DNA from: Candidatus Poribacteria bacterium
GTDB taxonomy: Bacteria; Poribacteria; WGA-4E; PCPOR2b
Reading direction: 5' to 3'
NCBI GenBank assembly: GCA_965247655.1
Contig: OZ252032.1
Coordinates: 1,861,101-1,925,100 of the forward strand
Length of the DNA: 64,000 nucleotides
A model generated the notes under the pieces. That model saw only the letters and a list, made by a program, of their open reading frames with translations. It searched no databases and was not told where the DNA came from. Numbering within the stretch: the first letter of the stretch is position 1; each line of letters opens with the position of its first letter. Shown here piece after piece: positions 40,380-58,424 of this stretch. A program made the translations under genes and the position numbers.

Positions 40380-40874
40380 TCAGTTGATTTGGATCGTCTC
40401 TACAAGTCCCCAACTAAAGTCGAGGTAGTAATTATGTTTTTTGCTCTCAGGGACGCAGATGATGCAGCACTTACCATCGCGGGCAAAGCGATCGGTAATC
40501 GTAACAAGATTGAGCTCGTAGGAGTATATCATTTCGATAGCATCAAGGACGAGGAGATTGTGCGTTTGGAAATGTTTGTCCAGCAGATCTTCAATAGCGA
40601 TCTGTATCAGGAGGTGTATTTTTGCTTTCGCGCCGGCGTAAGCGATTGATGCCCGCTGCTTGTCTAATTCATCAAGCAGATACAGATTCAGATTTACGTA
40701 ATAATCTGTAGAATTGCCGAATTTTTCATTGAGTAGATGCTTGACCAAATTTGTCTTGCCTGACTGAAACTCTCCGATGAGACAAATCGTCCCGTGCTCA
40801 GACCCGGAATCGATATGAGCGGCTAAGGCTTGATAGGCTTCCCGTTGATTTTCATCGAGTGGGTATGTCGGCAT
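40380..40874 (-). CDS. small P-loop NTPase of unknown function
   Basis: 164 aa; Walker A GEFQSGKT, Walker B-like LLVLDAIE. Confidence 0.5.
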   Translation of the reverse strand: MPTYPLDENQREAYQALAAHIDSGSEHGTICLIGEFQSGKTNLVKHLLNEKFGNSTDYYVNLNLYLLDELDKQRASIAYAGAKAKIHLLIQIAIEDLLDKHFQTHNLLVLDAIEMIYSYELNLVTITDRFARDGKCCIICVPESKKHNYYLDFSWGLVETIQIN

Positions 40875-40961
40875 GGGATTGGTATCATCTCAGAGAGGAG
40901 ATGTTAAAAAATCCTCCCAGTGGAAGTGTGGCAGAGGAAACTCCTCCGTTGCTTTGCATTG

Positions 40962-41375
40962 TCAAAAGGTTGCCGCTTTTTCAAAGAAGTCAATCTCGAC
41001 CACATCCACATTCGCACGCCGGGCATTATCAGCGACGCGCTGGACAACCATCTCTCGAACAAATGGGATGGGGATGCGTTTGACGCGGTGGACAACTTCC
41101 TCCGTGCAACGGACTGAGGTGTTACCCAAGAATGGGCCCTCTTGTGATTTCGCTTCAGAGGGATGGTCGCACGTCTCTGGTACGAGTTGCTGCAAGCGCA
41201 TTGAAACGTAGTCGGTCACCCAACCTTTGAACGCTTCCCCTTTCTCCTCGTCAATTGCAGTCGCCTGGGGTTTCTGATCCAATTTCTGACTGATACCAAC
41301 CAGTAGATCTTCCAAGCGGTTCAAGCGGTCCTCGACCGCGGATAGTCGTTCTTCAATTTTATTTTCACTGTTCAT
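40962..41375 (-). CDS. coiled-coil protein with C-terminal PCP_red-like domain
   Basis: ~138 aa from MNSENKIEERL (GAGG RBS); C-terminus TEEVVHRVKRIPIPFVREMVVQRVADNARRANVDVVEIDFFEKA matches the PCP_red (PF08369-like) pattern. Confidence 0.5.
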   Translation of the reverse strand: MNSENKIEERLSAVEDRLNRLEDLLVGISQKLDQKPQATAIDEEKGEAFKGWVTDYVSMRLQQLVPETCDHPSEAKSQEGPFLGNTSVRCTEEVVHRVKRIPIPFVREMVVQRVADNARRANVDVVEIDFFEKAATF

Positions 41376-41496
41376 TATTTTTTTCCTCAAATGCACGGAC
41401 ATCATGCGTGATGTGTAAAACGTGAACCAACTCCTGAACCTTTGAACGAATAAGGACCTATGCAAACGGATTGAAAATATATCTGTCAGCTATATT

Positions 41497-42798
41497 TTAC
41501 CGCCGAGGTCTGAAGGACGGAACGCCTGTTTTATCAAACCGATCCTTGACGGCTTTCATGATTTCCGGGGTAATTTCACTGTAACCGTGTTCGCGGGCAT
41601 ATTTTTCGACGCTTTTGGTGACCATCCCCTGTGCGAAGGAGGGAACACGCTGCAATCTTTGTTGTGCAGCATCTGTCCATTGTAACTCGTAGTCGGCTTC
41701 AGCTGCAAAGGGAGTAGTTTTTTCAAAACGGATGTTTTGACTTCCCGCCTGTCCCGGTTGGTACTCGCAGGATGGATCTTCAGCGAGATAGTTGTCAGTG
41801 AGGGCATAGGCACGGGCGCGGCAACCGCCGCAAACGTCCCGAAATTCGCAGGCACCACACTTGCCTTCCAGCAGTTTCCGATCTCGCAGCTCTTGAAAAA
41901 CTTTGGATTGATTCCAGAGCGTCACAAAGCTTTCTTTCTTCAGATTGCCGACACTCACTGGCATGTACGGGCATGGCGTTAAATCACCTTCAGGCGTGAT
42001 GCGGCAGTAGTAGATACCGCAGGGGCATGTACCACTCGGATAGGCTTGCAAGAAAGGTGAATCCGATTGTTGCTCATAGATGACCCGTTTGTAGTGTGGC
42101 GCGCATTTTGCTGCGACGAGCATTTTGCCATGATATTTCGCCTGTAACTCAAAGAGTGTTGAGAGCATACGTTCATATTGATCGGGTGTGATGTCCATCA
42201 CCGTTTTCCCTCTACCAGTCCTCACGAGGAAATAGAGATTGAACACCTTAGCACCGAGTTCATAAGCGAAATCAACGATTTGGGGGACCTCATCGTAATT
42301 CCAGCGGGTCACAGAGGTCTGTACAAGGAAATCGAGGTTTGCTCGCTTGAGGGCTTCGACCCCGTTCATCGTGCCTTCCCAAGCCCCTTCCATCCCTCGG
42401 AACTTGTCGTGATTAACCGGGTCTACAGCATCCAAACTGATGCCTGCCCCAGCAACACCGTGATCGCTCATCCGCTGAACCGTTTCATCGTTCAGCAGGA
42501 CGCCGTTTGTGCCCATCACCACCAAGAATCCGGTTCGGGCTGCGTAATCCGATATTTTCAAAATATCAGGACGCAGCAACGGTTCGCCACCTGTGAGAAT
42601 CAGGAGGATGTTGGGATTGATTTCGGCAATCTCATCAATCACGCGGAAACACTGGGATTGGCTCAATTCCGTATCTCGATAATACCCGCTTGGAAACTCG
42701 TTGGTATCCACAAACCCAGCGGGGAGATAGCAGTGTGTACATTTGAGATTGCATAGCCGTGTGATATTCCATGAAACGGCTTGGATTTTCGTTTCCAT
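41497..42798 (-). CDS. radical SAM / SPASM-domain enzyme with C-terminal PCP_red-like domain
   Basis: 433 aa; CNLKCTHC radical-SAM cluster motif; C-rich SPASM region (CPCGIYYC ... CGACEFRDVCGGCRARAY); C-terminal WTDAAQQRLQRVPSFAQGMVTKSVEKYAREHGYSEIT. Confidence 0.8.
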   Translation of the reverse strand: METKIQAVSWNITRLCNLKCTHCYLPAGFVDTNEFPSGYYRDTELSQSQCFRVIDEIAEINPNILLILTGGEPLLRPDILKISDYAARTGFLVVMGTNGVLLNDETVQRMSDHGVAGAGISLDAVDPVNHDKFRGMEGAWEGTMNGVEALKRANLDFLVQTSVTRWNYDEVPQIVDFAYELGAKVFNLYFLVRTGRGKTVMDITPDQYERMLSTLFELQAKYHGKMLVAAKCAPHYKRVIYEQQSDSPFLQAYPSGTCPCGIYYCRITPEGDLTPCPYMPVSVGNLKKESFVTLWNQSKVFQELRDRKLLEGKCGACEFRDVCGGCRARAYALTDNYLAEDPSCEYQPGQAGSQNIRFEKTTPFAAEADYELQWTDAAQQRLQRVPSFAQGMVTKSVEKYAREHGYSEITPEIMKAVKDRFDKTGVPSFRPRR

Positions 42799-42837
42799 GG
42801 TTGCCCCTTAAACGTGATATGATGTAATGTACTTCAA

Positions 42838-42862
42838 CCGCAGAGACGCAGAGAACGCAGAG
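42838..42862. promoter_or_regulatory. three tandem CGCAGAG heptads + T7 run upstream of radical SAM gene
   Basis: CCGCAGAGACGCAGAGAACGCAGAGTTTTTTT; ~40 bp 5' of the rSAM start on its strand. Confidence 0.35.
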
Positions 42863-42972
42863 TTTTTTTCATTACGTTTTGAGCCCAAGACCCCGGCGTC
42901 TGATTCCCTGAGTTAGAACAGGAACATTGAAATTCAGCAGAAGCCCAACTTGATACCGTCCCAATTTCAAAA

Positions 42973-43479
42973 TCAAACTCCTATCATTTGGCGGAGATAC
43001 AAGGAACATACCAATACAACAAGCCCAGCAAGTATCGTAAAAATTCCGAAGAGGTCTACTTTCCTTTGCAGCTTGGCAACCGTTGAATCGTCAAAATTGG
43101 GGTTTGCCACCGCCGACTCTAACCTTCGATTGAACACCGCGATATGCAGGCTATGAAATAGCGTCATCAATCCTACAAAGGCAAGTTTCACGATAAAAAC
43201 AACAAAATAGCCATAACCCTGAGAAAAGCGCATCTGCGTGTTCAATCCAACGATGAACAGGTTCATCGCACCGGTGATCAGGAGAATGTGGATTGTGAAG
43301 CGGATAATGTGCCGCAGGCGATTCCGGATCGCGGTGGCATGTTGGACACTTTCAAGGATTTGAAAATGCTTCCTCAAAATCGGTGTTGCAACGCTGACAG
43401 AAAAAAAGATTCCGCCCAACCAAACGATTGCGGCGGTAAAGTGTATCCAACGGATGAAAAGTTCGACAATTGGAGCCAT
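42973..43479 (-). CDS. hypothetical 4-TM integral membrane protein
   Basis: 168 aa, four hydrophobic helices, conserved His pair (LFHSLHIAVF). Confidence 0.55.
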   Translation of the reverse strand: MAPIVELFIRWIHFTAAIVWLGGIFFSVSVATPILRKHFQILESVQHATAIRNRLRHIIRFTIHILLITGAMNLFIVGLNTQMRFSQGYGYFVVFIVKLAFVGLMTLFHSLHIAVFNRRLESAVANPNFDDSTVAKLQRKVDLFGIFTILAGLVVLVCSLYLRQMIGV

Positions 43480-43561
43480 AAGTGAGTGAAATAGGATACG
43501 ATGGCGGACCTATCACAGTTTGTGTGAGCGGGACCTCTTCCGTTCTCACCGTGATAAACTC

Positions 43562-44062
43562 CTACATTCCAAAATTACCGCGTGCGGTATCCATTATTTC
43601 GGTGGTGATTTCGGTGTGTCCATTTTCACGTGCGAACTCTTCGATGCTGGTCTTCGCCATCGAACGGACGAAACTAGGCACGCGCTCCAGACGCGCTAAC
43701 GCTTCCGGTGTCCATATTGGTCCGGTCGCCTCCGACTCTTGAAATGCTTCCGCTACAGCCGATGAGAACGGGCATTTCCCACCCCCTTCGGTAGATACTG
43801 CCGGCGCTTCGGAGGTCAGATTGTCCGGATTCTGCTGATTCAGGAAGGAACGCACCATCTGCATCGGCTGCGCCGCTTCGCTCTTGCCACCGAGCTGAAC
43901 ATCGAGGGATTTCAGCATTTGGGTTTCCCACGGGTTCATGTGCATTGCAAACTCAGCGAAGCAATCTGGGCACTCGAAAATCGCCGTCAACGAGCCTTGA
44001 TCTGGCGTCGCTGTTTCCTTAAATTGCATTGCTGTGTTACATTCAAGACATAAGAATTTCAT
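43562..44062 (-). CDS. zinc-ribbon + PCP_red-like domain protein
   Basis: 166 aa; N-terminal CLECN...CPDC Cys4 ribbon; C-terminal WTPEALARLERVPSFVRSMAKTSIEEFARENGHTEIT. Confidence 0.55.
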   Translation of the reverse strand: MKFLCLECNTAMQFKETATPDQGSLTAIFECPDCFAEFAMHMNPWETQMLKSLDVQLGGKSEAAQPMQMVRSFLNQQNPDNLTSEAPAVSTEGGGKCPFSSAVAEAFQESEATGPIWTPEALARLERVPSFVRSMAKTSIEEFARENGHTEITTEIMDTARGNFGM

Positions 44063-44091
44063 TGGTTGACTCCGTTTATATGCTACATTTT

Positions 44092-44976
44092 CTATTCAAA
44101 GAACGTCCGAATTTCATCCGTAATGCCGAAAAATGTTCGTCCTGCGGGAGTATCTCCGTACTGATTAACAAACACGCTGCCTTCGTCCGCAGCAATAGAG
44201 ATCCGCGGATCGAAAGGTATCTTGCCGAGCAGAGAAATGTCAAATTGGCGCGCCATCTCCTCCGTATTGCCCGACGGGAATAGGTCTTCAGTTTTGCCAC
44301 AATCGGCGCAGACATAAGCCGCCATATTTTCGACGATGCCGATCAGCGGTGCGTTGAGCAGTTTCTTTGCCACTGTCAGCGATTTTTTAACAACAAGCTG
44401 CGAAACCCCAGAAGGGATTGTAACAACAACTGTGCCGCCAAGATTCGGCAGGAGATCGACGAGATTTGGCAATCGATCTGCGCCGGGTGGAAGATCTATC
44501 AACAGATAATCAAGTGTTCCCCATTCTGTATCGGAGAGAAATTCACGGAGGGCACTCATTTCCATTGTCCCCCGCCAAGTGAAAGCATCCTTCTGTGTTT
44601 GGGATTCCCAGAGGACTGGGGTTTCGTCATCCTTGAGGAATAGATCCATCGACATCACCTTGACTCCAAGCGGACTGATGGCAGGTTTAACACCATCAGC
44701 ACCATAATCAATGTGCTGCCCTCTCACCCCCATCATTTTAGCAATTGAGGGACCATTGATGTCAGCGTCAATCACACCAACATTGTGCCCACGTAATCCA
44801 AGTGCCGAAGCAAGGTTTGCCGTAACCGAACTCTTACCCACACCGCCCTTTCCACTCATGATGGCAACAGTGTGGCGGATTGACGCAAGTCGTTGTTGTA
44901 AGCGATTGACCTGCTGCGTTACTTGTCCAACGATATTAGAGCCGCCATCGGCGGGGAGGTCTTTGTAGGTTTTCAT
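44092..44976 (-). CDS. Mrp/NBP35 (ApbC) family Fe-S cluster carrier ATPase
   Basis: 294 aa; deviant Walker A SGKGGVGKSS, CADCGKT / CxxC motif. Confidence 0.85.
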   Translation of the reverse strand: MKTYKDLPADGGSNIVGQVTQQVNRLQQRLASIRHTVAIMSGKGGVGKSSVTANLASALGLRGHNVGVIDADINGPSIAKMMGVRGQHIDYGADGVKPAISPLGVKVMSMDLFLKDDETPVLWESQTQKDAFTWRGTMEMSALREFLSDTEWGTLDYLLIDLPPGADRLPNLVDLLPNLGGTVVVTIPSGVSQLVVKKSLTVAKKLLNAPLIGIVENMAAYVCADCGKTEDLFPSGNTEEMARQFDISLLGKIPFDPRISIAADEGSVFVNQYGDTPAGRTFFGITDEIRTFFE

Positions 44977-44985
44977 AGGTTCTGA

Positions 44986-45867
44986 TTAATGATAGATAAA
45001 CAACGGAATACCCGCCTGCTCCACCAAGGATTTGGTTACACTGCCGAAGACGAATTCCGATACGCTTCGTTTCCCATACGCCCCCATGGCAAGCAGATCA
45101 ATTTCATATTCTCGGATGTAGGACAGAATGGCTTCATCGACCCTGCCTCTCAATTGGACTTTCTCCGTCTGTACTCCATATCTACGAAAGTAATCGCCGA
45201 GCCTAGCGAGCAACTGTATTCCACGACTTGCATTATTGTTGACATTCAGGAGGGTGATGTCACATTGATTCCAGATATGAAGCAGGAGAAACATCTGAAT
45301 TGCTTTGGTAACTTGGACGCTGTTATCGTAAGCGACGAGCACTTTTTTAATCTGCCTGACAGAATCGGGGACTGCTAGGACTGGGGTCAACCCGCTATGA
45401 AGGATTCGATCCAAGGTGTTACCCGGTTCGTGTTTGATGTTATACCGAAAAAAGGTCTTCTGCCCAATTATAATAAAATCGTGGAATTTTGATTCTTCGA
45501 TAATTTCCCGAAATGGGCTGCCTGTCTCTGAATGGATTGAGTGACGGATCTCTTTCTCCTGACAGTTTTTCCCAAAGTCTTTAAGGACTCCACTTACTAT
45601 CTCCCGCGTCTCCTGGAAGTGTTGCTGGTCAGCGAGTCGATCGTAGTGCATCGCTCCAATAGGCGCGGGACCGCTTGAACGTTGGATACCCGGCAGATCA
45701 ATTACGCCGATGCCGGTTAGCGAGGCGTTATGTTCAAGGGCGATTTGGGTGGCATATTCGACCGCCGCCTGAGAGTAGCTTGAACCGTCGAGACACACAA
45801 GGATTTCCGCAAAATGTGAAGGGTTTCTGGGGGGCATTGGCAAACTCCGATCTAAATTGACATTCAA
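44986..45867 (-). CDS. tandem universal stress protein (UspA) domain protein
   Basis: 293 aa, two Usp-like halves (ILVCLDGSSYS ... ; KVLVAYDNS ...). Confidence 0.75.
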   Translation of the reverse strand: MNVNLDRSLPMPPRNPSHFAEILVCLDGSSYSQAAVEYATQIALEHNASLTGIGVIDLPGIQRSSGPAPIGAMHYDRLADQQHFQETREIVSGVLKDFGKNCQEKEIRHSIHSETGSPFREIIEESKFHDFIIIGQKTFFRYNIKHEPGNTLDRILHSGLTPVLAVPDSVRQIKKVLVAYDNSVQVTKAIQMFLLLHIWNQCDITLLNVNNNASRGIQLLARLGDYFRRYGVQTEKVQLRGRVDEAILSYIREYEIDLLAMGAYGKRSVSEFVFGSVTKSLVEQAGIPLFIYH

Positions 45868-45876
45868 GGTGTGATT

Positions 45877-47820
45877 TTACTCTTGCGCTGTTTCCTCTTT
45901 ATCGCTCTTCGCTTCAGTAGTGTCTTCACCTTGCTGGTAGTATGTCCCAAGCACCTCATTGTCTAGACTTCGTCCTTCCTCAATCACCTGCGCTGCAAAA
46001 TCTAGGTTGATTGTCGTGAGGTCAGCCTCCTGCGCTCGCTGCTCGACACGGGATTGCGTGATGTTCCGCATAAATCCAGCGGGTACGAGGTTCAGCCGTT
46101 CACGGGCATCTGAAGTCCATTCAAGCGGACTTTCAAATGCTTCCCCTTGGGAAGTATCAGTGGACTCGCGGGACTGCGCGACAGCTTTCAGTTCAGGTGC
46201 ATCTTCACGGACAGCGGAAGCCTGATCCATACTCTCGTTGATAATCTGCATCGCAAATTCGTTGGTGATTGTACCGATCTTTTGGACACGTGCCGATTTT
46301 TCGATTCGCGCTTTGACGTTGCGTCGCATATACCCGCGTGGGACATTCCGCAACGCTTTTTTCGCCTGATCTGACCACTGGAGGCGTACACCATCGAAGG
46401 TCTGTTCCTCACTGACGCCGCCCTCTTGATCTGCAACTCTCTGGAGAGAGTCTTTATCGACCATCTGGAAACTACCGCCGTCCACGCCACAGACAGGGCA
46501 TTTCACAGGCTGCTGGTCGCGGGCGGCATAGCCACAATCGCCACAGATGTAGGTCTTAATCGCATTGGAATCCAAAACCGTTTGCGTTGCGATCTCTTTG
46601 GCAACCTTGGTCATCCGTTCCGCTGAACGACCCGGCATAAAGGTTTCCATCGCCTGCTCAATGACGCTCTCGGTAATGACAGAGTGACCGCGTTCAATGG
46701 CAAAACGGTGGACAGCGGTGCGTGCGATACCTTGTACTTGCGGCGGTGCCTTCGCCATCCGATCCAAGGCTTCCTGTGTCCAGACCACCGTCTCCTCCGC
46801 TCTGACATCAACTTTTGGGACGTACCGTTGGCTCGACAGGAACACATTACACGGGGCAAGGCGCAATAAATTTTCGGTGTTGCTGCCTATGTCCATATCG
46901 GAATCGCTGTGGACACCGATTCTGCCCAACACCAACATCCACGGTTCGGTCTTTCGGGCGTATTGCAAGATTTTCTCAAATGCTTTGCCATCCAACAGGG
47001 TAATTTTCAGGTCGTAGTTGTGGTCTTCCTTGGCGATGGTCCGGGCAATCTCCAGATGGGATTGATAGATTTTGGCGAGCCCGGTGTCGATAACTTCTTC
47101 GTGCAACTGCTCTTGCTCTTTGAATCGGAAGGTTTTGGAGGCTCGCTCAGTTAGGACATTGACAACCGAATTAAACACCACATAGTGGAGATACGGATCG
47201 TAGACACCAACCGCCTCAACCTGTCTATTAAATGCCTTGCCCATCCGGATTGCTGTTTTCAGTCCGCCGAAGGATTCGGGGCTGCCATCAATTCCGACGA
47301 GAATATGCCCCTTCTGTTCGTGCATCTCTTCTATATTTCGGACTACAAGGGTATCGGTCTCAATACGTCGCACAACCCGTTCAACCACCCCGCCGAGCAG
47401 GCTATCCTTAACCGCTCCCAGACCGAGAGCACCCATAATCACAAGGTCGTAATCGCTCGCCTGAATATCCTCTGCCAACTTGATGAAGTGTTTGCCCTCA
47501 GGCATTTTGGCTTCAAAGGGGATGTCATTTTCAGCGCATTTCTTCTTCATGACCTCCAAGTACGAATCAGAGATTAACTGAAGTCCCATTGTAATTAATG
47601 TGTCATGAATACGGCGCTGCTTTTCAAGTTCGGCTTCATCTTGATATTCTTCGGGGAGTGTGTACTCCATCTGTTTGAAGCGAACATCGTGCATCTTCGC
47701 CGCATAAACGTGAGAGCCAACGAGTTGGGATTGAAATTTTTTGGCGAACTCTACCGCGAAATTGACGCTCGCATCGGAATGGTCTGAGTTGTCAACAGGC
47801 ACATAGATTTTTTTAAACAT
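45877..47820 (-). CDS. multidomain protein: tandem Usp domains + rubredoxin-like zinc ribbon + three PCP_red-like modules
   Basis: 647 aa; N-terminal KKIYVPVDNSDHSD Usp; CGDCGYA...CPVCG ribbon; three repeats of W[TS]xxAxxxLxxVPxxxxxxVxxxxExxAxE (VVWTQEALDRMAKAPPQVQG.. ; LQWSDQAKKALRNVPRGYMR.. ; LEWTSDARERLNLVPAGFMR..). Confidence 0.65.
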   Translation of the reverse strand: MFKKIYVPVDNSDHSDASVNFAVEFAKKFQSQLVGSHVYAAKMHDVRFKQMEYTLPEEYQDEAELEKQRRIHDTLITMGLQLISDSYLEVMKKKCAENDIPFEAKMPEGKHFIKLAEDIQASDYDLVIMGALGLGAVKDSLLGGVVERVVRRIETDTLVVRNIEEMHEQKGHILVGIDGSPESFGGLKTAIRMGKAFNRQVEAVGVYDPYLHYVVFNSVVNVLTERASKTFRFKEQEQLHEEVIDTGLAKIYQSHLEIARTIAKEDHNYDLKITLLDGKAFEKILQYARKTEPWMLVLGRIGVHSDSDMDIGSNTENLLRLAPCNVFLSSQRYVPKVDVRAEETVVWTQEALDRMAKAPPQVQGIARTAVHRFAIERGHSVITESVIEQAMETFMPGRSAERMTKVAKEIATQTVLDSNAIKTYICGDCGYAARDQQPVKCPVCGVDGGSFQMVDKDSLQRVADQEGGVSEEQTFDGVRLQWSDQAKKALRNVPRGYMRRNVKARIEKSARVQKIGTITNEFAMQIINESMDQASAVREDAPELKAVAQSRESTDTSQGEAFESPLEWTSDARERLNLVPAGFMRNITQSRVEQRAQEADLTTINLDFAAQVIEEGRSLDNEVLGTYYQQGEDTTEAKSDKEETAQE

Positions 47821-47917: not shown

Positions 47918-49306
47918 TTACTTCGGTCCAATCATCTGGCTAGGAACGACAACCCGATCAAATTCTTCCTCGCTCAACAGATTAAGTTCGACTACAGTCT
48001 GACGTAGCGTTTTGCCTTCCTGATGGGCAGTTTTGGCGACCAGCGCCGCATTGTCGTAACCGATGTAGGGGTTAAGCGCGGTGACAAGCATCAATGAGTC
48101 GTTCAGGTATTCTTGAATTTTCTCCCGATTTGGCTCGATACCGACGACACAGTTTTCGTTGAACGAATCACAGGCATCCGCAAGTAGGCGGATGGATTGG
48201 AGCGCGTTGAAGGCAATGACGGGCATAAATACATTCAACTCAAAGTTGCCCGATGCACCTGCAATTGCAATCGTCGTGTCGCTGCCGATAACTTGGGCGC
48301 AAACCATTGTCATAGCTTCGCATTGCGTCGGATTCACTTTCCCCGGCATAATCGAACTCCCCGGTTCGTTCTCCGGCAGCAGAAGTTCGCCAATGCCGCA
48401 GCGGGGACCGCTGCCGAGCCAGCGAAGGTCGTTGGCGATTTTGTTCAGGGCACACGCCAGTGTTTTGAAGGCACCGCTTGCCTCAACGATAGCGTCTCGA
48501 GCACCGAGAGCCTCAAACTTGTTGGGCGCAGTCACAAGGGGAAATCCGGTGCGTTTGGAGATTGAAGCGGCGGCTTTTGTAGCGTATTCCGGATGGGTGT
48601 TCAGTCCGGTGCCGACTGCGGTTCCACCGATTGGCAGTTCGTACAGATGCGGCAGCACGTGATCAATTGCGCGGAGTGCGTTATTCAACTGCGTGACATA
48701 TCCAGAAAACGCCTGTCCCAGCGTCAGTGGGGTGGCATCTTGCAGATGGGTGCGTCCGGTCTTGACGATATCCTTAAAGGCTTCGGCTTTCACTGATAGC
48801 GTGTCGCGTAGGGCAGTCACAGCAGGAATCAGGTGATTGTGAATGCGGTCAACGACAGCGACGTGGATAGCTGTTGGGAAGGCATCGTTGGTAGACTGAG
48901 ATTTGTTGACGTGGTCGTTGGGGTGGACGGGTTCTTTGCTGCCGAGGACACCGCCAAGCATCTCAATGGCACGGTTTGAGATCACTTCGTTGACGTTCAT
49001 GTTGGTTTGGGTACCGCTGCCGGTCTGCCAAACTACCAATGGAAAGTGATCATCCAGATCTCCATCAATCACTTCCTGCGCGGCTTTGATGATAATTTCA
49101 GCCAGATCCGCCTCCAGCGTTCCCAACTCGGCGTTTACTTCGGCGACAGATTGTTTGACGATACCAAGTGCCCAAATCATCTCACGCGGGAAACGTTCCC
49201 CACCAATTTTAAAGTTCTGCAATGAACGCTGGGTCTGTGCACCCCAATATCGATCTGTTGGGACTTCAATCTTCCCCATGCTGTCTGATTCAATTCTTGT
49301 TTGCAT
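47918..49306 (-). CDS. fumC: fumarate hydratase class II
   Basis: 462 aa; [11 protein letters not shown] signature, typical FumC N-terminus. Confidence 0.9.
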
Positions 49307-49429
49307 TTACCCCTCCAAGCAACTTTTGGTGATATGATCCTGCACGATTGTCGACAATCCGTTGATCCAAGCGTGTGGGAAGGTTAACGAATCGCTTGGC
49401 GATCTTGCGAAAGTTCTTACAACACCCGC

Positions 49430-50305
49430 TTATGTTCCTAACTTTGCTAGCACGCTTTGGGCTGATATTATGTGTTTGCTGAGGCCCAACTCCTTTGGCG
49501 GCAAGCCAAGTGCCAAACCGATCATCTGCGGCAGGTGGAGCACCGGCATATCAAGTTGACGTTTAACTACCTGACTGACGCCGGGCTGCAGGAGATCGAG
49601 GTTCATGTGGCAGAGCGGACAAGGTGTTACCATGCAGTCCGCTCCGTTGTCCTTTGCCTCGCCAATATGCTTCCCAGCCATTTTGAATGATGCTTCTTCG
49701 TTCTCAAGCCCGATGGGAAAACCGCAACAGCGCGTTTTGCCGTAGTAGTCTACTGGGGTGCCACCCAACGCTTCAATGACGCGTTCCATCGAAGTGGGAT
49801 TGTCAGGGTTGTCAATCCCCATGATGCTTGCAGGACGCAGAATGTAGCAGCCATAAAACGGTGCGATGCGCAAGTCGGTCAACGGCTTTTTGACCATGCC
49901 ACGTAGATTGTCCAGACCGAGTTCTTTGATAAGGACATAGAGAAGGTGTGTGACATCTACGCCACCATGATACTCGTGTCCGCCTGACTTGAGCACTGCG
50001 TTGACCTCTGCCCGGTAGCCCTCGTCCTCGGACAGTTTCTTATTGCTCTTGCGTAAACAACCGATGCAGGTCGAACAGACCGTCATCAGCGGTAGGTCCA
50101 GTTCCTCCGCGAGCGCAAGGGTCTTGGCGTTGTACGTGTCGGCAAGGACCGGATTCTGCGCTTGAAGCACGCCTGCGCCGGTACAAGGGGCACCGGTCAA
50201 TTCAACCAACTCAATACCGAGTAAGGGCGCAATCTTTTTGGTGGATTGGTTCAATTCTGGACAGTTTCCCTTGGCAACACAGCCAGGGAAGTAGGCAATT
50301 CTCAT
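49430..50305 (-). CDS. CCG-domain (HdrB-like) subunit of succinate dehydrogenase/fumarate reductase (SdhE/SdhC of E-type SQR, or TfrB-like)
   Basis: ~292 aa; two Cys-rich CCG-type motifs (YFPGCVAKGNCPE ... CSTCIGC ; FYGCY ... CCGFP ... PCPLCHMN). Confidence 0.7.
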   Translation of the reverse strand: MRIAYFPGCVAKGNCPELNQSTKKIAPLLGIELVELTGAPCTGAGVLQAQNPVLADTYNAKTLALAEELDLPLMTVCSTCIGCLRKSNKKLSEDEGYRAEVNAVLKSGGHEYHGGVDVTHLLYVLIKELGLDNLRGMVKKPLTDLRIAPFYGCYILRPASIMGIDNPDNPTSMERVIEALGGTPVDYYGKTRCCGFPIGLENEEASFKMAGKHIGEAKDNGADCMVTPCPLCHMNLDLLQPGVSQVVKRQLDMPVLHLPQMIGLALGLPPKELGLSKHIISAQSVLAKLGT

Positions 50306-50608
50306 TACATCCTCCCGTATCAATTGTGATTGGAACGTGAAACCTAATGTGTGATATGTGATGCGTAAAACAGACAGCGAATTCTTCCTTGCTTCCCCTC
50401 ACAGTTTGAGCAATGTATTCGTCTTTAATTATTCTCAATTGACCACAGACTTGCATCCATGATCGCTCCAGTCTAATGGGACCGCAATTTCAGATATGCT
50501 GAAAAGCAGTAAATCGGGTAGGTGGTCTCCAATTCTCAAAAGATGTTCTCAGAATTCGAGCGTCCCTTTCTCATCATGTGAACCGAATCGTGAACTTCTT
50601 CGAGATCC

Positions 50609-51571
50609 CTACTTCCTTTTTCCCTCTTCCAACTGCTTATGAATGCGCCGGACATCCTGGACCTCTGTCACTGAAGGGTGTGAACCGGGCAACAAGGGTT
50701 TGATTTTCCCTTTCAGGGTTGCCTTGATCGCGATACCTACGTTCTTAACAGCCCAACCCCAACCCGCTGCTTTTATCGGTAGTGTGCGCTCATCAAGCAC
50801 ACCGGTATGCGCTACGCTTTCGGTGAAGTGAAGCACATGTTTCGCGCCTATGTTGTCGGTCAGCCCCTCCTCGATTGCCTTCTCACGCAATTTGATAATT
50901 AGGTCCATCGGCGCGACATCTTTCGGGCAGACCTCCACACATTCGAGACACCGTGTGCAATCCCAGATACCGCCCTCTTCACTCAGTTCTGTCAGCCACT
51001 CTTTGGCTTTGCCGTGGCGTGGATCTCCAACCACGCGGTACGCTTTGGCCAGCGCCGCGGGAGCTAAGAAGTTTGAATCCTCCTCCAGCACCGTGCAATC
51101 GCTTACGCATGCGCCGCACATGATACAGTTCATCGGTTGTTGCAGTTCGACCATCTTGGCGTGTGGGACTTGATACTCACGTTCTGGCGGTTCTCCTACC
51201 GCCTCAATCCACGGCTTCACCTGTTTCAATTTATCCCAGAACATATCCATTTCAGTGACAAGGTCTTTAATCACCTTCATGTTGCCCATCGGCTCAACAC
51301 GAATTTCCTCACCGTCAGGTGCAAGCGTTGAGACTTTAGTCTTGCATCCCAACTTCGCGTGTCCATTGACCCGAAAGGCACATGAGCCGCAAACTGCACT
51401 GCGACATGAACAGCGCATGGCTAGTGTGCCATCGATATCTTCGCGGACTTTGATGAGCGCGTCCAGCACGGTTGCAAAATCAGGCAACTCCTTCACTTCA
51501 TAGGTATCATAATGCGGTTCCTGGGCTGTCTGCGGGTTGTAACGGTATACTTTCAAATTAGCTTGTATCAT
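50609..51571 (-). CDS. sdhB: succinate dehydrogenase/fumarate reductase iron-sulfur subunit
   Basis: 320 aa; 2Fe-2S (CSCRSAVCGSCAFRVNG), 4Fe-4S (CIMCGACVSDC) and 3Fe-4S (CTRCLECVEVCP) motifs. Confidence 0.85.
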   Translation of the reverse strand: MIQANLKVYRYNPQTAQEPHYDTYEVKELPDFATVLDALIKVREDIDGTLAMRCSCRSAVCGSCAFRVNGHAKLGCKTKVSTLAPDGEEIRVEPMGNMKVIKDLVTEMDMFWDKLKQVKPWIEAVGEPPEREYQVPHAKMVELQQPMNCIMCGACVSDCTVLEEDSNFLAPAALAKAYRVVGDPRHGKAKEWLTELSEEGGIWDCTRCLECVEVCPKDVAPMDLIIKLREKAIEEGLTDNIGAKHVLHFTESVAHTGVLDERTLPIKAAGWGWAVKNVGIAIKATLKGKIKPLLPGSHPSVTEVQDVRRIHKQLEEGKRK

Positions 51572-51650
51572 TCTGTATCTCCTCTGCGTGATGAGTAATA
51601 CGTCTAAACGTCTACTGAATTCCCGCTTTCTACGCTCTACATATTACATC

Positions 51651-53354
51651 TCAGTATTTCCGCGCCTCCGGTTGCCATTTCGTAATCGTCACCGGCAGAT
51701 AGGTAACTGCGGGTCCGTCCGGGGTATGGTAGACAGCCACATGCTTGAGCCAGTTCTCGTCGTCCCGTTCAGGATAGTCAGTGCGGGTGTGGGCACCACG
51801 GCTCTCCTTGCGTGCAAGGGCACTAGCGATAATCGTTTCAGCACAATCGAACATGAAGTCCAACTCTAAGACAGCTAGCAAATCGGTATTGAACACTCTA
51901 CCTTTGTCGTGAACAGAGACATCTGGAAAACGTTCACGGACAGCGTGGATTCTACGTTGCGCCTCAAGCAAACCGGTCTCCTCGCGAAACACACCAGTGA
52001 AGGTATGCATAATCTCGCCCATTTCCAGCCGCAGGGCGGGGGCACGCTCGTTCGTCGATCGGGCAAAAAGGTCACCGATTTTCTGCTCCTCCACCCCTAT
52101 GACCGCCTCGGAGATATTGGCGGAGTTAATGCTTCTGGCATATTCTGCCGCCCGTGCTCCTGCTCTCCGACCAAATGTAACACAGTCTAGCAGGCTGTTG
52201 CCCCCGAGTCGATTTGCCCCATGCGCTGAAACACAGGCAGCCTCACCTGCCGAGTACAAGCCGGGCAGTGGTTCTGAACCGTCCCCGTTATGTCGATAGC
52301 AGCGCCCGTCTATATCCGTCTTAATGCCACCCATCATATAATGCATCCCTGGTCGAATCGGTAGGGGCTGCTGCGTAATGTCCACACCAGCATAATCGAT
52401 TGCGAGTTCAGAAATTTGATGAAAAGCCTCTAAAATACGGTCTTTGATGTGTCGGCAATCGAGTAGTACACAGCCATCAATCCCACGTCCTTCCTGGATT
52501 TCGATCGTTTCAGCGCGAGAGACAACATCGCGCGAGGCTTTTTCCTCCAATGTCGTTGCACCATAGCGTTCCTCTTGCATAAACCGCTCGCCCTCGGAGT
52601 TTAGCAGATACGCGCCTTCGCCGCGCGCCCCCTCCGTGATGAGAAAGCCGTTGGCGGGGAGTGTAGTCGGGTGATATTGCACCATCTCCATGTCCATGAG
52701 CAGTGCACCAACCCGATAGGCTAAAGAAAGCCCATCGCCCGTCACAATAAGCCCATTGGTGCTTGGCTCGTAGACCCGTCCACAACCGCCGGTGCAGATA
52801 ATGACCGCCTTCGCCTTAAAGACTTCCAACTTGCCGCTCGTTATATCCATCGCCACAGCACCACAGCATGCGCCATCCTCCATGAGCAGTGTTGTTATGA
52901 ACCATTCATCGTATGACTTGACGTTCATCTTGAGCAGTCGCTCGTACATGACGTGCAAAATGGTCTGCCCAGTCATGTCGCCGACATGGCACGTGCGGCT
53001 CTTGTCGGTTCCGCCGAAGCCGCGCATGTGGATTTTTCCCTCTTCGTTGCGGTCAAAGATGACGCCCCAATGTTCAAGAGAGAAGACGTCCTGAATGCCT
53101 TCATGGCAAAGGATTTCGATGGCATCCTGGTCGCCTAAGAAGTCGCTGCCCTTGACAGTCTCATAAGCGTGAACCTCCCACGAGTCTTCAATGCCTAGTG
53201 CTGCGTTAATGCCGCCTTGTGCGGCCGCCGAGTGGGAGCGCGTTGGGTAAACCTTTGACATCATTGCCACGCTCGCACCGGCCTCCCCCGCATGCAGGGC
53301 GGCACTCATCCCCGCCAAACCGCCGCCAATAACGAGCACATCATATTCAATCAT
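51651..53354 (-). CDS. sdhA: succinate dehydrogenase/fumarate reductase flavoprotein subunit
   Basis: ~567 aa from MIEYDVLVIGGGLAG; covalent-FAD His region (RSHSAAAQGG), RxGxxxR active-site residues. Confidence 0.9.
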   Translation of the reverse strand: MIEYDVLVIGGGLAGMSAALHAGEAGASVAMMSKVYPTRSHSAAAQGGINAALGIEDSWEVHAYETVKGSDFLGDQDAIEILCHEGIQDVFSLEHWGVIFDRNEEGKIHMRGFGGTDKSRTCHVGDMTGQTILHVMYERLLKMNVKSYDEWFITTLLMEDGACCGAVAMDITSGKLEVFKAKAVIICTGGCGRVYEPSTNGLIVTGDGLSLAYRVGALLMDMEMVQYHPTTLPANGFLITEGARGEGAYLLNSEGERFMQEERYGATTLEEKASRDVVSRAETIEIQEGRGIDGCVLLDCRHIKDRILEAFHQISELAIDYAGVDITQQPLPIRPGMHYMMGGIKTDIDGRCYRHNGDGSEPLPGLYSAGEAACVSAHGANRLGGNSLLDCVTFGRRAGARAAEYARSINSANISEAVIGVEEQKIGDLFARSTNERAPALRLEMGEIMHTFTGVFREETGLLEAQRRIHAVRERFPDVSVHDKGRVFNTDLLAVLELDFMFDCAETIIASALARKESRGAHTRTDYPERDDENWLKHVAVYHTPDGPAVTYLPVTITKWQPEARKY

Positions 53355-53467
53355 AAATCTTCCCTGTATCCTTTCTTTATTCAGAAACGCATTGTGACCC
53401 AGCGTTAAGGGGTACCTAGAGACACAACCAGTATGTAACAGGTCCAATCTGGAAACTGCAATGGATT

Positions 53468-54130
53468 TTACCTGAGAAGAGTTTGTATATCTTGGCGAAG
53501 TTGTTGGAGATGGGCTTTGCTCCGACTATCGTAGTAGCCACGGACTTGCCCTGCCCTATCAACGAGAACAAACCGTGTGCTGTGAAGGATCTCATTCCCT
53601 TGCCGTCCTGCCGCCAAGTTGAAACCCTCGTACGCCAGTTGATAAATTGCCTCTTTCTCACCGGTTAAAAAAGACCAGCTATTATGGTCTGCACCGTAGC
53701 GATCGGCATAGCGAGAGAGCACCTCAGGGGTATCCCGTTCCGGATCAACGGAGAATGAAACAAAGTATACCCCCTCTATTGGAAATTCGTCCTGGAGTTT
53801 CGACATCTCATCTGTCATCGGTGGACAGATGGTTACGCAGCTCGTGAAGATGAAATCTGCAACCCAAATTTTGTCCCGGAGATCTGCCAACGTAAGGGAA
53901 CGACCACGCTGATCGGTCAAGGAAAAGTCCGGCAGTTGTTGATGAGCCGCGAGTTCTGACAATAAAGTTGCCGGCTCGGAGGTTGTGCCGGACTTTTGAT
54001 GAACGAGTGACCTGAGATTGACAGCCAAGATGCCAACAATCACGAGGGCTAGCACACCCCAGAGAAGTCCGCGTAGCATACGCTCGTTGGGTCTGGCATC
54101 CTGTCCTGGAGATTTGACTTTGGCTTCCAT
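53468..54130 (-). CDS. SCO1/SenC family copper chaperone (cytochrome oxidase assembly)
   Basis: ~220 aa; N-terminal TM, CxxxCP motif (CVTICPPMT), thioredoxin-like fold. Confidence 0.8.
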   Translation of the reverse strand: MEAKVKSPGQDARPNERMLRGLLWGVLALVIVGILAVNLRSLVHQKSGTTSEPATLLSELAAHQQLPDFSLTDQRGRSLTLADLRDKIWVADFIFTSCVTICPPMTDEMSKLQDEFPIEGVYFVSFSVDPERDTPEVLSRYADRYGADHNSWSFLTGEKEAIYQLAYEGFNLAAGRQGNEILHSTRFVLVDRAGQVRGYYDSRSKAHLQQLRQDIQTLLR

Positions 54131-54191
54131 AGGCGTAAAACCTAGGACGTGCAACGTAAAAGTTTTTCACATTTCACGCATCACGTTTTAC

Positions 54192-54533
54192 TTAGTGAGA
54201 TGTATCAACAACTTGAGACTCCGCCTTAGCTCCCTCATGACGAGCACCTGCCATCAGATCCGGAAGCAGCATAAACACGAGAAAAACGCAGATAATAAAC
54301 GGTGTCAGCGCAATGACTATCAAGGTTCTCTGCTCAAATTTCAGGTGCATGAAATAGAGAGCGACATAAACCGCTTTAGAACATGCCATACCAATTAGCA
54401 GGAGTGCGGTCACAGTCTGCCCCAAAGTCTGCTTTAAAAGAGGCAGGGCGACGACGACTTCAAGGATTGTGAGTATGAGAAGTATCACAAATATTCTCAT
54501 GTATTTTGGGTGTTCTTTATGAGCGTGTTCCAT
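54192..54533 (-). CDS. cytochrome c oxidase subunit IV (prokaryotic caa3-type small subunit)
   Basis: 113 aa, 3 TM, position after subunit III. Confidence 0.6.
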   Translation of the reverse strand: MEHAHKEHPKYMRIFVILLILTILEVVVALPLLKQTLGQTVTALLLIGMACSKAVYVALYFMHLKFEQRTLIVIALTPFIICVFLVFMLLPDLMAGARHEGAKAESQVVDTSH

Positions 54534-54553
54534 CTTGATTCTCCATTCGGTGA

Positions 54554-55201: not shown

Positions 55202-55204
55202 TTT

Positions 55205-55456
55205 TCACACTCCTTTCACATTTGAAGGGGGTTTACGATTATCGGTCCGATGTGTGCGGTAGACGTAAAACACGCCACCACCAATTAGACCGGAAACAAT
55301 ATAGGGCATCGCCATAAGGAATAGAATACTCCACTTGAAGCCCTGAACAATTGGGTCATCAATCGTTTTACATGAGGGACAGGCTTCCACAACTGTTGGT
55401 ATCAGTAGTGCAAGTACCAGAACCCCTACTATGAGTGAAAAATATCGACAAATCAT
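55205..55456 (-). CDS. hypothetical small 2-TM membrane protein with CxxC (cox-operon associated)
   Basis: ~83 aa from MICRYFSL (AAGGAGAT RBS); ACPSCK motif between helices. Confidence 0.4.
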   Translation of the reverse strand: MICRYFSLIVGVLVLALLIPTVVEACPSCKTIDDPIVQGFKWSILFLMAMPYIVSGLIGGGVFYVYRTHRTDNRKPPSNVKGV

Positions 55457-55488
55457 AAGAAATCTCCTTGGTATTTTTCTTCTCCATT

Positions 55489-56094: not shown

Positions 56095-56311
56095 CGCAAG
56101 TAAAAGATAAAACGTGAAAGAGGAGGAAAGCTCGATTGCAAAACAAACGAGGCTAGGAAACCCTTATCGCAGGGATATTAGTTTTTGACGAGCGCGAGAA
56201 TCGTTGCAAAAATAAATAGGACAACAAATATCACGAATAAGAACCATCCGAGACGTCGGTTTCGCTGCCGCTTTTCTTGATCATTCATCTAAGTTTGATG
56301 CCCCCATTCTA

Positions 56312-58380: not shown

Positions 58381-58389
58381 GGTTTAGAT

Positions 58390-58415: not shown

Positions 58416-58424
58416 ATATCACCC

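Follow-up and report, generated by a model that had tools for sequence, protein, structure and literature searches.

What does PCP_red, a module known from subunit B of DPOR, do in six copies around a radical SAM (rSAM) enzyme in the genome of a sponge symbiont of the Candidatus Poribacteria? The module (PF08369) has been described in the C-terminus of BchB/ChlB (structures 2kru and 2ynm_D) and as the free-standing Nostoc protein Asr4154 (2l09). In the window analysed here (the whole 64-kb stretch of DNA), by contrast, PCP_red is present in multiple copies on four proteins, with neither the nitrogenase-like catalytic domain nor the BchN or BchL partners of DPOR. No bch genes lie near the cluster, and the scores with the BchB models, 45-54 bits, stay below the cutoffs of 490-509, which agrees with the previous rejection of a role in (bacterio)chlorophyll synthesis.

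The earlier note had reported a PCP_red-rich cluster of seven genes. The observation was confirmed overall, with strand and coordinates checked: all the genes are on the minus strand, at the positions reported there. However, the genes as listed number eight, and the coiled-coil protein has 137 rather than 138 amino acids, with its ATG at 41375, matching its orthologues. The Radical_SAM and SPASM, Mrp, tandem Usp, rubredoxin-like Cys4, 4-TM, and weak P-loop assignments hold (Pfam/NCBIfam). Six genes are conserved, namely, those for Usp-Usp-PCP_red-rubredoxin-like-PCP_red-PCP_red, Mrp, Cys4-ribbon-PCP_red, CopD-like, rSAM/SPASM-PCP_red, and coiled-coil PCP_red-like proteins, whereas the second Usp gene and the P-loop gene, previously counted as cluster parts, are lineage-specific additions found in the closest clade only. 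The features are as follows.

47918..61712, minus strand: upstream, co-directional COX2, COX1, CtaA, CtaB, two COX3, SCO1, SdhA/B/E-type, and class II fumarase genes (Pfam)
45877..47820, minus strand: 647-aa Usp-Usp-PCP_red-rubredoxin-like-PCP_red-PCP_red protein, conserved core partner of the rSAM (Pfam)
nt 46651-46782, 46243-46377, 45985-46119, minus strand: PCP_red stretches of the 647-aa protein (PF08369)
nt 46468-46551, minus strand: rubredoxin-like Cys4 of the 647-aa protein, between the first and second PCP_red
44986..45867, minus strand: 293-aa tandem Usp protein without PCP_red (Usp 98.4 bits), lineage-specific addition, not core
44092..44976, minus strand: 294-aa Mrp/NBP35/ApbC-type P-loop Fe-S carrier (PF10609; GKGGVGKS and C223-x-x-C226)
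43562..44062, minus strand: 166-aa protein with Cys4 ribbon (C5, C8, C31, C34) and C-terminal PCP_red, nt 43580-43714 (Pfam)
42973..43479, minus strand: 168-aa 4-TM CopD-superfamily membrane protein with invariant His13 in TM1 (Pfam, family alignment)
41497..42798, minus strand: 433-aa radical SAM (C16, C20, C23)/SPASM enzyme with C-terminal PCP_red, nt 41545-41679, catalytic core (Pfam, NCBIfam)
40962..41375, minus strand: 137-aa coiled-coil protein with divergent PCP_red-like C-terminus, nt 40971-41111 (Pfam, hhalign)
40380..40874, minus strand: 164-aa weak P-loop protein, lineage-specific, probably outside the system

When the segments were searched with PF08369 (gathering score 32.5), the 647-aa protein scored 95.3 bits over three stretches, the 166-aa Cys4 protein 68.7 bits, and the rSAM C-terminus 58.2 bits, which bears out the earlier naming of the repeated module as PCP_red. 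The copy in the coiled-coil protein, with a Cys in place of the first conserved Trp, reaches just 18.9 bits (E 1.6e-3), below the gathering score; nevertheless, comparison of the profile of its poribacterial orthologues (n=79) with a PCP_red profile (n=137 modules) gave 97.4% and E 1e-11 in hhalign, and by this criterion the sixth copy is real but divergent. The modules, ~45 aa and three helices long, contain no conserved Cys or His, and PCP_red folds autonomously (structures 2kru and 2l09). The position of the module shifts between the rSAM and its partner proteins from lineage to lineage: the rSAMs of Brocadia and Nitrospinota carry three copies, and in Poribacteria, six copies are distributed across four proteins. 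The autonomous fold, the mobility between partners, and the lack of Cys/His would all fit a docking module, the role suggested in the earlier note.

That note missed the type of the rSAM enzyme itself. Apart from the Pfam Radical_SAM (84.5 bits) and SPASM (38.6 bits) domains, the protein matches the NCBIfam models of AhbD (heme b synthase; TIGR04545, 325 bits, E 1e-97) and NirJ2 (TIGR04055; 305 bits, E 1e-91). AhbD is its best match among all NCBIfam families, with residues 8-348 aligned over the full length of the 339-position model, and the CX3CX2C core and the full SPASM cysteine set are shared with AhbD/NirJ2, the radical SAM/SPASM coproheme decarboxylase of the siroheme-dependent pathway. 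Judging from these similarities, the enzyme is AhbD/NirJ2-like, that is, of the iron-tetrapyrrole-modifying type, and would be an oxygen-independent heme-modifying enzyme, probably a coproheme decarboxylase. Use of AhbD is not confined to the Ahb pathway; the enzyme can also stand in for ChdC without a need for oxygen (PMC13564367). Unlike AhbD/NirJ2, the cluster rSAM scores below the equivalog cutoffs (500 bits each), belongs to its own clade with 1-4 C-terminal PCP_red modules, and comes with fixed partners (Usp-PCP_red, Cys4-PCP_red, Mrp, and CopD-like) and respiratory oxidase clusters, with no ahbA, ahbB, or ahbC beside it. Because both cutoffs are missed, its reaction may differ.

This rSAM belongs to a discrete PCP_red-bearing clade. 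One to four PCP_red modules are present on all of the ~31 best 50%-identity representatives; they follow SPASM in every full-length representative scoring at least 309 bits and in none below 309. Other clade members score 276-338 bits on the AhbD and NirJ2 models. The clade has named representatives in Poribacteria, Brocadiales, other Planctomycetota, Nitrospinota, Binatia, Dehalococcoidia, Rokubacteria, and Deltaproteobacteria. The clade has no name in NCBIfam, and no description of it was found in the searchable literature.

The best fold matches obtained for a homologue, PqqE, SkfB, SuiB, and anSME, could suggest a different activity, namely, a protein or peptide maturase that would modify a respiratory-complex subunit or a PCP_red protein, with PCP_red as the substrate-recognition handle. 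Most solved SPASM relatives are indeed peptide or protein modifiers, the close association with particular oxidase gene clusters would suit a dedicated maturase, and PCP_red is carried by the enzyme as well as by its neighbours. We nevertheless consider a maturase unlikely: peptide-modifying SPASM models score about 130 bits or less against the rSAM (E 1e-38 or weaker, NCBIfam), far behind AhbD and NirJ2; the fold ranking is biased because no solved AhbD or NirJ structure was among the sequence or fold matches; no RRE domain scored; and the partners (ORFs of at least 70 aa surveyed) are conserved folded proteins with metal sites rather than precursor-like peptides.

In the window, the cluster closes a co-directional COX2-COX1-CtaA-CtaB-COX3-COX3-SCO1-Sdh-FumC array (Pfam), and the Rokubacteria contig L168 repeats the order COX1-CtaA-CtaB-COX3-COX3, with Usp-PCP_red and rSAM next. 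Gene order is conserved across phyla, at least seven of which have the Usp-PCP_red/rSAM pair next to genes of respiratory oxidases. Outside Poribacteria, the Usp-PCP_red gene usually precedes that of the rSAM, in settings with "bd-like" oxidases, c-type cytochromes, EB_dh heme proteins, SCO1, aa3 oxidase with CtaA/CtaB, or a hemY neighbour. Among the 11 Pfam-annotated contexts outside Poribacteria and Brocadia (L003, L084-L087, L168-L173), a Usp gene lies beside or near the rSAM in all 11 (with PCP_red on nine of these Usp proteins), cytochrome c and/or EB_dh genes are present in eight, a Cyt_bd_oxida_I-like gene in six, and SCO1 in two; an aa3 oxidase operon with CtaB (and, in L168, CtaA) is followed or faced in two. 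The metagenome survey comprised 80 rSAM loci. Heme or respiratory neighbours were found in 22 of the 35 loci of at least 8 kb, and the gene immediately downstream of the rSAM (47 loci) was CopD-like in 8, bd-like in 6, and HemY-like in 5. The HemY-like neighbour, confined to one subclade, is above the cutoff of the protoporphyrinogen oxidase model (252 and 230 bits against 97.85). Neither failure of PF08369 nor dispersal of the genes, named earlier as grounds for doubt, is seen, since the model matches and the genes keep together in 80 poribacterial loci as well as in other phyla.

A conserved, highly transcribed cluster of a bd-like oxidase, two cytochromes c, and an alternative NxrC (EB_dh) is a feature of Nitrospira, Nitrospina, and anammox bacteria (PMC6606698). 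The same four-gene set adjoins the Usp-PCP_red/rSAM pair in L003, L086, L170, L172, and several metagenome loci, whereas the poribacterial window has an aa3 oxidase and no bd-like gene; the rSAM and Usp-PCP_red genes are not mentioned in the searched literature on this cluster. The system might make or insert a non-standard heme for particular terminal oxidases, rather than serve general heme b synthesis, the candidates being a modified heme of bd-like oxidases or an oxygen-independent heme O/A-related route. We give this version a modest chance. In L003, L086, and L170 the gene adjoins bd-like oxidase genes, and in L171 and L172 it shares a cluster with them; what is known of the bd-like complexes comes solely from genomic and transcription data (PMC6606698); CtaA/CtaB and aa3 oxidase genes are adjacent in the window, L168, L087, and L118; SCO1, a cofactor-insertion factor, is co-located; and the rSAM scores below the AhbD cutoff. 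Yet no unusual heme has been reported for these complexes in the literature searched, Poribacteria have no bd-like gene close by, the Brocadia rSAM gene stands alone, and the HemY adjacency better suits general heme synthesis.

In the 647-aa protein, Usp scores 125.5 bits (Pfam), and the rubredoxin-like module, with its CxxCGY...CPxCG knuckles, falls just short of the PF21349 (RUBY_RBDX) cutoff (23.5 against 26.5 bits); G-x2-G-x9-G-S and CxxCG...CxxC are invariant in the family alignment (n=18). Orthologues lie immediately upstream of the rSAM in 22 of the 42 metagenome loci having upstream sequence and are found also in L003, L085, L086, L168, L169, L172, and L173. The 293-aa Usp protein occurs in the closer poribacterial clade only (73-91% identity) and is absent from the other loci; its origin as a recent duplicate of the 647-aa protein was ruled out (BLASTP E 0.012). 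The Mrp protein (PF10609, Mrp/NUBPL ParA, 250.9 bits) shares the deviant Walker A and CxxC motifs of Mrp/NBP35/ApbC carriers but, in contrast to Desulfovibrio MrpORP, matches the ATPase part only (model positions 2-248 of 365), and it is under both NCBIfam equivalog cutoffs (MrpORP, 254.6 against 450 bits; ApbC, 173.4 against 348 bits). An upstream Mrp gene is conserved in roughly half of the poribacterial loci; Mrp also occurs in L085, L087, and L168, and 13 of 70 metagenome loci have it no more than 8 kb from the rSAM. The 166-aa family is present in 12-13 other loci, mostly immediately 3' of Mrp, and 12 of its 13 members retain the Cys4 ribbon. The CopD-like gene adjoins the rSAM, and the coiled-coil gene lies 3' of it, in 80/80 poribacterial loci; no counterpart of the coiled-coil protein was found outside Poribacteria. 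The 168-aa protein itself scores 29.6 bits with CopD (cutoff 32.1) and 18.6 bits with UPF0093/HemJ (Pfam); in its family, CopD matches nine of ten members (best E 2e-12) and UPF0093 five of ten, and H13, W20, P33, T69, G70, and K98 are invariant. The P-loop protein, whose gene is restricted to the closest poribacterial clade, scores 23 bits with both AAA_14 and BrxF, under cutoff (Pfam/NCBIfam).

Such partners could also point to Fe-S repair or delivery under redox or hypoxia stress, with Usp sensing, Mrp delivering, PCP_red tagging clients, and the rSAM as one client. Usp, the rubrerythrin-type rubredoxin module, and Mrp are stress- or Fe-S-associated families, and among solved structures TB31.7 of M. 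tuberculosis, a hypoxia-linked protein, matches the Usp part best. However, the invariant cross-phylum pair is Usp-PCP_red plus rSAM, with Mrp in a minority of loci, which argues that the rSAM is the centre of the system and not one client among many, and the neighbours are respiratory and heme genes rather than general stress genes. We therefore regard the stress scenario, which takes up the suggestion of the earlier note, as improbable. The recurrent partners, heme-copper and bd-like complexes, SCO1, CtaA/CtaB, and hemY, suggest heme and respiratory-complex maturation instead of a generic redox-stress system.

The reading that we prefer, tentatively and with slightly less than even confidence, is an accessory system of membrane respiratory complexes in which partners dock via PCP_red on an oxygen-independent heme-modifying rSAM. 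The AhbD/NirJ2-like rSAM would most probably act on an iron tetrapyrrole, and most likely decarboxylate coproheme to heme b without oxygen; as a possible alternative, it would make a related change to a side chain of the heme intended for the oxidase. Mrp would load or repair the three [4Fe-4S] clusters of the rSAM, and the Cys4 modules (rubredoxin-like in the 647-aa protein, a ribbon in the 166-aa protein) may pass electrons to or from it. The ATP-binding tandem Usp domains might have a gating or sensing role, the CopD-like protein, which has the invariant His, would tie the system to the membrane, and PCP_red, without metal ligands, would be the common docking unit that holds the partners on the rSAM.

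Several observations run counter to this accessory-system reading: the AhbD/NirJ2 scores are sub-cutoff, the Brocadia gene is alone, HemY neighbours are confined to one subclade, and ferrochelatase, UroD, and ChdC genes are absent from all annotated contexts. In addition, bd-like, HemY-like, and EB_dh genes are missing from the 10 kb around the cluster in the 80 poribacterial loci and from the whole 64-kb window. Furthermore, an oxygen-sensitive enzyme is encoded beside aerobic oxidases, and microaerobic life is an assumption.

The presence of the Usp-PCP_red/rSAM pair next to respiratory oxidase genes in such diverse bacteria suggests that it probably assists heme maturation for respiration, as a helper not described before.

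The region 40380-47820 is occupied by eight genes, all on the minus strand and spaced 9 to about 170 nt apart, whose closest homologs (94-97% identity) come from Candidatus Poribacteria:

Gene 1 (minus strand), 647 aa: two Usp domains, PCP_red, a rubredoxin-like Cys4 ribbon, and two more PCP_red modules
Gene 2 (minus strand), 293 aa: tandem Usp protein
Gene 3 (minus strand), 294 aa: Mrp/NBP35-type ATPase
Gene 4 (minus strand), 166 aa: Cys4 ribbon and PCP_red
Gene 5 (minus strand), 168 aa: CopD-like protein with four TM segments
Gene 6 (41497..42798, minus strand), 433 aa: radical SAM/SPASM/PCP_red enzyme (hereafter rSAM)
Gene 7 (minus strand), 137 aa: coiled-coil protein
Gene 8 (minus strand), 164 aa: weak P-loop protein

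These genes terminate a 14-kb co-directional array (47918-61712) that encodes COX2, COX1, CtaA, CtaB, two copies of COX3, SCO1, SdhA/B/E-type proteins, and a class II fumarase. The Sdh/Frd of the array is non-classical, being composed of a flavoprotein, an Fe-S subunit, and a CCG-domain, HdrB-like subunit. Promoter-like (11 vs 10.6 expected) and terminator-like (17 vs 9.9 expected, sd 3.8) sites are near background, and the scan for these signals defined no operon limits. Elsewhere, the window contains a heterotetrameric sarcosine-oxidase-like set (6339-11873; DAO-type beta subunit, 977-aa alpha subunit with GCV_T, SoxG-like gamma subunit), a xanthine/CO-dehydrogenase-type molybdoenzyme (17274-21143), and a DDE transposase gene (32591-33538) followed, up to 34431, by a C-5 cytosine DNA methylase gene that is apparently 5'-truncated, matching only positions 108-320 of the methylase model. 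The GC content drops to 0.42-0.45, vs about 0.50 elsewhere, in two stretches (13954-15837 and 21270-26734); one encodes a leucine-rich-repeat/cohesin/dockerin protein that ends in a C-terminal secretion sorting domain, and in the other lie three large ORFs, of 326, 711, and 496 aa, none of which matches Pfam.

The repeated module of the cluster was identified in the earlier note, from recurring residues, as PCP_red-like, and the search with PF08369 bears this out: five modules exceed the gathering score of 32.5 (95.3 bits over three stretches, 68.7, and 58.2 bits). The sixth, in the coiled-coil protein, scores 18.9 bits, under the cutoff, and is homologous to the family by profile-profile comparison (hhalign probability 97.4%, E 1e-11, 46 columns). 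The modules share the fold of the solved PCP_red domain; in their alignment, conservation is seen at Trp, Ala, Pro, Arg/Lys, Glu, Ala-Arg, and Ile-Thr positions, and at no Cys or His. PCP_red is a genuine point in common with DPOR, and nothing else of DPOR is present in the cluster. The BchB/ChlB models TIGR01278 and NF002789 (cutoffs 490-509) yield 45-54 bits, over the last ~60 model positions only, and neither bchN nor bchL nor any other bch gene was found among the scanned ORFs of the window or in related loci. We thus reject a chlorophyll/DPOR function, as the earlier note also did.

The radical SAM enzyme contains the CX3CX2C motif (C16, C20, C23) and ten cysteines in the SPASM region (C232, C258, C260, C265, C276, C314, C317, C323, C326, C344), and scores with both the Radical_SAM and the SPASM Pfam models. 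By sequence, it resembles AhbD (TIGR04545, 325.2 bits) and 'NirJ2' (305 bits), with the whole catalytic part aligned in each case and both scores falling short of the 500-bit equivalog cutoff; two other members of its clade, P0278 and P0271, reach 276 and 324 bits on the AhbD model. Identity as NirJ, the enzyme of heme d1 biosynthesis, is not supported: the score on TIGR04051 is 189.8 bits against an equivalog cutoff of 515, and nirS, nirF, nirD, and nirL were seen in none of the rSAM contexts that we read. An exhaustive search of 1.84 billion representative proteins, combined with a custom PCP_red HMM, delineates the clade: all full-length representatives with at least 309 bits carry one to four PCP_red modules immediately following SPASM, and those below 309 bits carry none. 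The nearest relatives lacking PCP_red are AhbD/NirJ2-like (277-533 bits on the AhbD/NirJ2 models). PCP_red defines an AhbD/NirJ2-like clade of radical SAM enzymes.

Members of this clade are named from Poribacteria, Brocadiales ('nirJ 3'), other Planctomycetota, Nitrospinota, Binatia, Dehalococcoidia, Rokubacteria, and Deltaproteobacteria (taxonomy beyond Poribacteria being taken from representative proteins, cluster look-ups, and metagenome contigs), and are annotated in databases merely as 'radical SAM protein'. NCBIfam has no model for the clade, for the Usp-PCP_red and Cys4-PCP_red families, or for the coiled-coil protein. In the AlphaFold2 model of the Brocadia rSAM-PCP_red fusion (pLDDT 83.6), the enzyme adopts the PqqE/SkfB/SuiB/anSME fold, and each PCP_red forms a short strand followed by three helices; no solved AhbD structure is among the sequence or fold matches. 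A maturase modifying a protein or peptide, with an oxidase subunit as substrate, would fit this fold and the oxidase genes that surround rSAM in many genomes; given that the peptide maturase models of NCBIfam score at most 130 bits and that neither Pfam nor NCBIfam gave an RRE match across the surveyed ORFs (down to 60-70 aa), we consider it quite unlikely.

The 647-aa protein matches PF00582 (Usp) with 125.5 bits, and the motif G299-x2-G302-x9-G312-S313 is invariant in an 18-sequence alignment of its tandem Usp part; G-x2-G-x9-G-[ST] is what we take to be the ATP-binding signature of Usp proteins. Its rubredoxin-like segment scores 23.5 bits on PF21349, under the cutoff of 26.5, and the residues of the CxxCG...CPxCG knuckles (C426, C429, G430, C441, C444) are invariant in the alignment. 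An insert of this type, CxxCG(Y)...C[PAT]VC, between the first and second PCP_red characterizes one Usp-PCP_red subfamily (Poribacteria and loci L087, L149, and L168); the remaining subfamilies have one to four PCP_red modules and no ribbon. In the Cys4-PCP_red family, 12 of the 13 members retain the N-terminal ribbon. The Mrp protein (PF10609, 250.9 bits) has the deviant Walker A motif SGKGGVGKS and a CxxC motif (C223-A-D-C226), and stays under the equivalog cutoffs for ApbC (173.4/348) and MrpORP (254.6/450). The membrane protein itself is below the cutoffs for both CopD (29.6 bits vs 32.1) and UPF0093 (18.6 vs 34.2); among its relatives, 9 of 10 match CopD (best E 2e-12) and 5 of 10 match HemJ/UPF0093 weakly, and the family has an invariant His in TM1. 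These matches support a probable assignment to the CopD superfamily, at the superfamily level only; identification as HemJ is not supported by the weak UPF0093 matches.

Conservation of the cluster in Poribacteria was assessed in the best 80 of 386 matches from a scan of genome contigs, all 80 being poribacterial, with rSAM 77-97% identical to that of the window. The CopD-like gene, rSAM, and the coiled-coil gene occur together, in constant order, in all 80 genomes; in about half of them, the genes for the 647-aa protein, Mrp, and the Cys4-PCP_red protein lie no more than 10 kb upstream. Only the closest clade has the second Usp gene, the P-loop gene, and adjacency to fumarase. We reject a recent origin of the second Usp gene by duplication of the 647-aa gene. 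The search for genes for a Cyt_bd_oxida_I-like (hereafter bd-like) oxidase, HemY-like protein, or EB_dh was negative both within 10 kb of rSAM in the 80 loci and over the full 64 kb of the window. A ~240-aa PhyH-like gene (phytanoyl-CoA dioxygenase family), present once or twice, separates rSAM from the coiled-coil gene in many Poribacteria (for example, L036 11504-12223; L040 11330-12849; L047 11349-12068; L055 12635-13420); the window has no such insert, but a PhyH gene lies apart from the cluster at 5417-6271. Between rSAM and the PhyH-like gene of L055 (11336-12100), a unit of ~25-30 aa is repeated (…TAQRSGSTTGNVLRHNGVDLLLEMCYG…) and can be read in more than one frame, which suggests a tandem DNA repeat.

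Outside Poribacteria and Brocadia, we read 11 Pfam-annotated contexts of rSAM:

L085 (Nitrospinota): cytochrome c, DUF420, Mrp, PCP_red protein of 149 aa, Usp-PCP_red, rSAM
L086: Usp-PCP_red, rSAM, Cyt_bd_oxida_I-like, cytochromes c, cytochrome c-EB_dh, PCP_red protein of 228 aa
L087: aa3 oxidase operon facing rSAM, then Usp-PCP_red, Mrp, PCP_red protein of 168 aa, CopD, bd-like
L003: EB_dh, Usp-PCP_red, two membrane proteins, rSAM, bd-like, cytochromes c
L168 (Rokubacteria), on one strand: COX1-CtaA-CtaB-COX3-COX3-COX4-DUF983-Usp-PCP_red-RUBY_RBDX-PCP_red-rSAM-140 aa-PCP_red 344 aa-Mrp
L170: NXR/Nar-like molybdoenzyme set, Usp, rSAM, bd-like, two cytochromes c, EB_dh
L171 (Dehalococcoidia): bd-like, cytochromes c, SCO1, Usp-PCP_red, rSAM, with SCO1 first and the Usp gene flanked by two small genes
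L172: bd-like, cytochromes c, SCO1, Usp-PCP_red, rSAM
L173 (Binatia): cytochrome c-EB_dh, cytochrome c, Usp-PCP_red, rSAM
L169 (Deltaproteobacteria): Usp-PCP_red, rSAM, cytochrome b gene nearby
L084: cytochrome c, Usp, CBS, rSAM

The order COX1-CtaA-CtaB-COX3-COX3 is common to the array of the window and the Rokubacteria locus, where it precedes the Usp-PCP_red/rSAM pair. In 80 further metagenome loci, many of them on short contigs, ORFs were called and clustered. The gene directly upstream of rSAM encodes Usp-PCP_red in 22 and Cys4-PCP_red in 4 of the 42 loci whose upstream sequence reaches 1.5 kb or more; directly downstream (47 loci), the neighbor is CopD-like in 8, bd-like in 6, and HemY-like in 5; and a heme or respiratory neighbor is present in 22 of the 35 loci of at least 8 kb, all these counts being minimum values, since some genes were masked by spurious antisense ORFs on contigs of high GC. 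The HemY-like neighbors score 252 and 230 bits on the protoporphyrinogen oxidase model, above the cutoff of 97.85. Altogether, Usp-PCP_red is an almost obligatory neighbor of rSAM, the Mrp, Cys4-PCP_red, and CopD-like partners recur, and the pair is repeatedly found inside clusters for heme- and copper-containing respiratory complexes and the factors for their cofactors (CtaA, CtaB, SCO1, and HemY). The alternative of the earlier note, a general system of Fe-S or redox stress, would accommodate the Mrp, Usp, and ribbon proteins; next to this recurrent respiratory setting, we find it distinctly improbable.

Two additional gene types were noted in these loci. A B12-binding radical SAM gene lies directly upstream of Usp-PCP_red in L099 (5896-7521) and also in L108, L109, and L112, members of the subfamily in which a CopD-like gene follows rSAM; its product is related to slr0320, the 'photosystem II high light acclimation' protein of cyanobacteria (447.6 bits, cutoff 775). 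Type II DMSO-reductase-family molybdoenzymes are encoded in several Usp/rSAM loci:

L085 16977-21842; L170 1881-6743: NXR/Nar-like sets with a NarJ-like chaperone
L086 3400-6641; L172 13998-17275: Rieske and molybdopterin arsenite-oxidase-like pairs, with CCP_MauG peroxidases

The rSAM of Brocadia and of some Nitrospinota itself carries three PCP_red modules, and the Brocadia rSAM gene stands alone. PCP_red is thus attached to the enzyme in some lineages and to the partners in others, and this Rosetta-stone pattern, along with the autonomous folding of the module and its lack of metal ligands, leads us to propose that PCP_red could be a docking unit. In DPOR, BchB is paired with the Mrp-related BchL, and tethering of Mrp through PCP_red would echo this pairing.

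Under the interpretation that we favor tentatively, at a little short of an even chance for the whole, rSAM would act on an iron tetrapyrrole, with its clusters supplied by Mrp, electrons carried by the Cys4 modules, ATP bound by the Usp domains as a gate or sensor, and the CopD-like protein providing a link to the membrane. The exact reaction is a matter of lower confidence still; the likeliest would be that coproheme is decarboxylated to heme b without oxygen, a role already suggested for AhbD homologs where the coproporphyrin-dependent pathway operates (PMC13564367). The most interesting rival, itself a sub-variant of the heme-enzyme interpretation, is an oxidase-specific pathway for a modified heme, to which the oxidase genes next to rSAM and the sub-equivalog AhbD scores would both be open; we deem it unlikely. 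The bd-like complexes are known from genomes and transcripts only (PMC6606698, PMC9040806), and the literature that could be searched has no account of PCP_red other than in DPOR, nor of bd-like oxidase genes with a radical SAM gene next to them. More speculatively, and with a rather small chance of being right as stated, the Usp-PCP_red/rSAM-PCP_red pair could be a dedicated cofactor-maturation machine of terminal oxidases, including the never-purified 'bd-like' oxidases of nitrite oxidizers and their relatives, that makes or inserts a heme species without oxygen, with PCP_red representing a new class of portable docking modules that tether rubredoxin-like carriers and the Mrp ATPase to a radical SAM enzyme.

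If the heme-enzyme interpretation is correct, these findings would define a widespread, unnamed branch of AhbD/NirJ heme enzymes, represented in at least seven phyla by about 40 clusters at 50% identity, and would offer a testable substrate for it. They would also provide the first function of PCP_red outside chlorophyll synthesis, a module of which free-standing forms, such as Asr4154, have structural-genomics structures without a known role, and would place an assembly factor in the gene clusters of bd-like and aa3 oxidases, which are poorly understood and whose carriers include such environmentally important organisms as nitrite oxidizers, relatives of anammox bacteria, and sponge symbionts.
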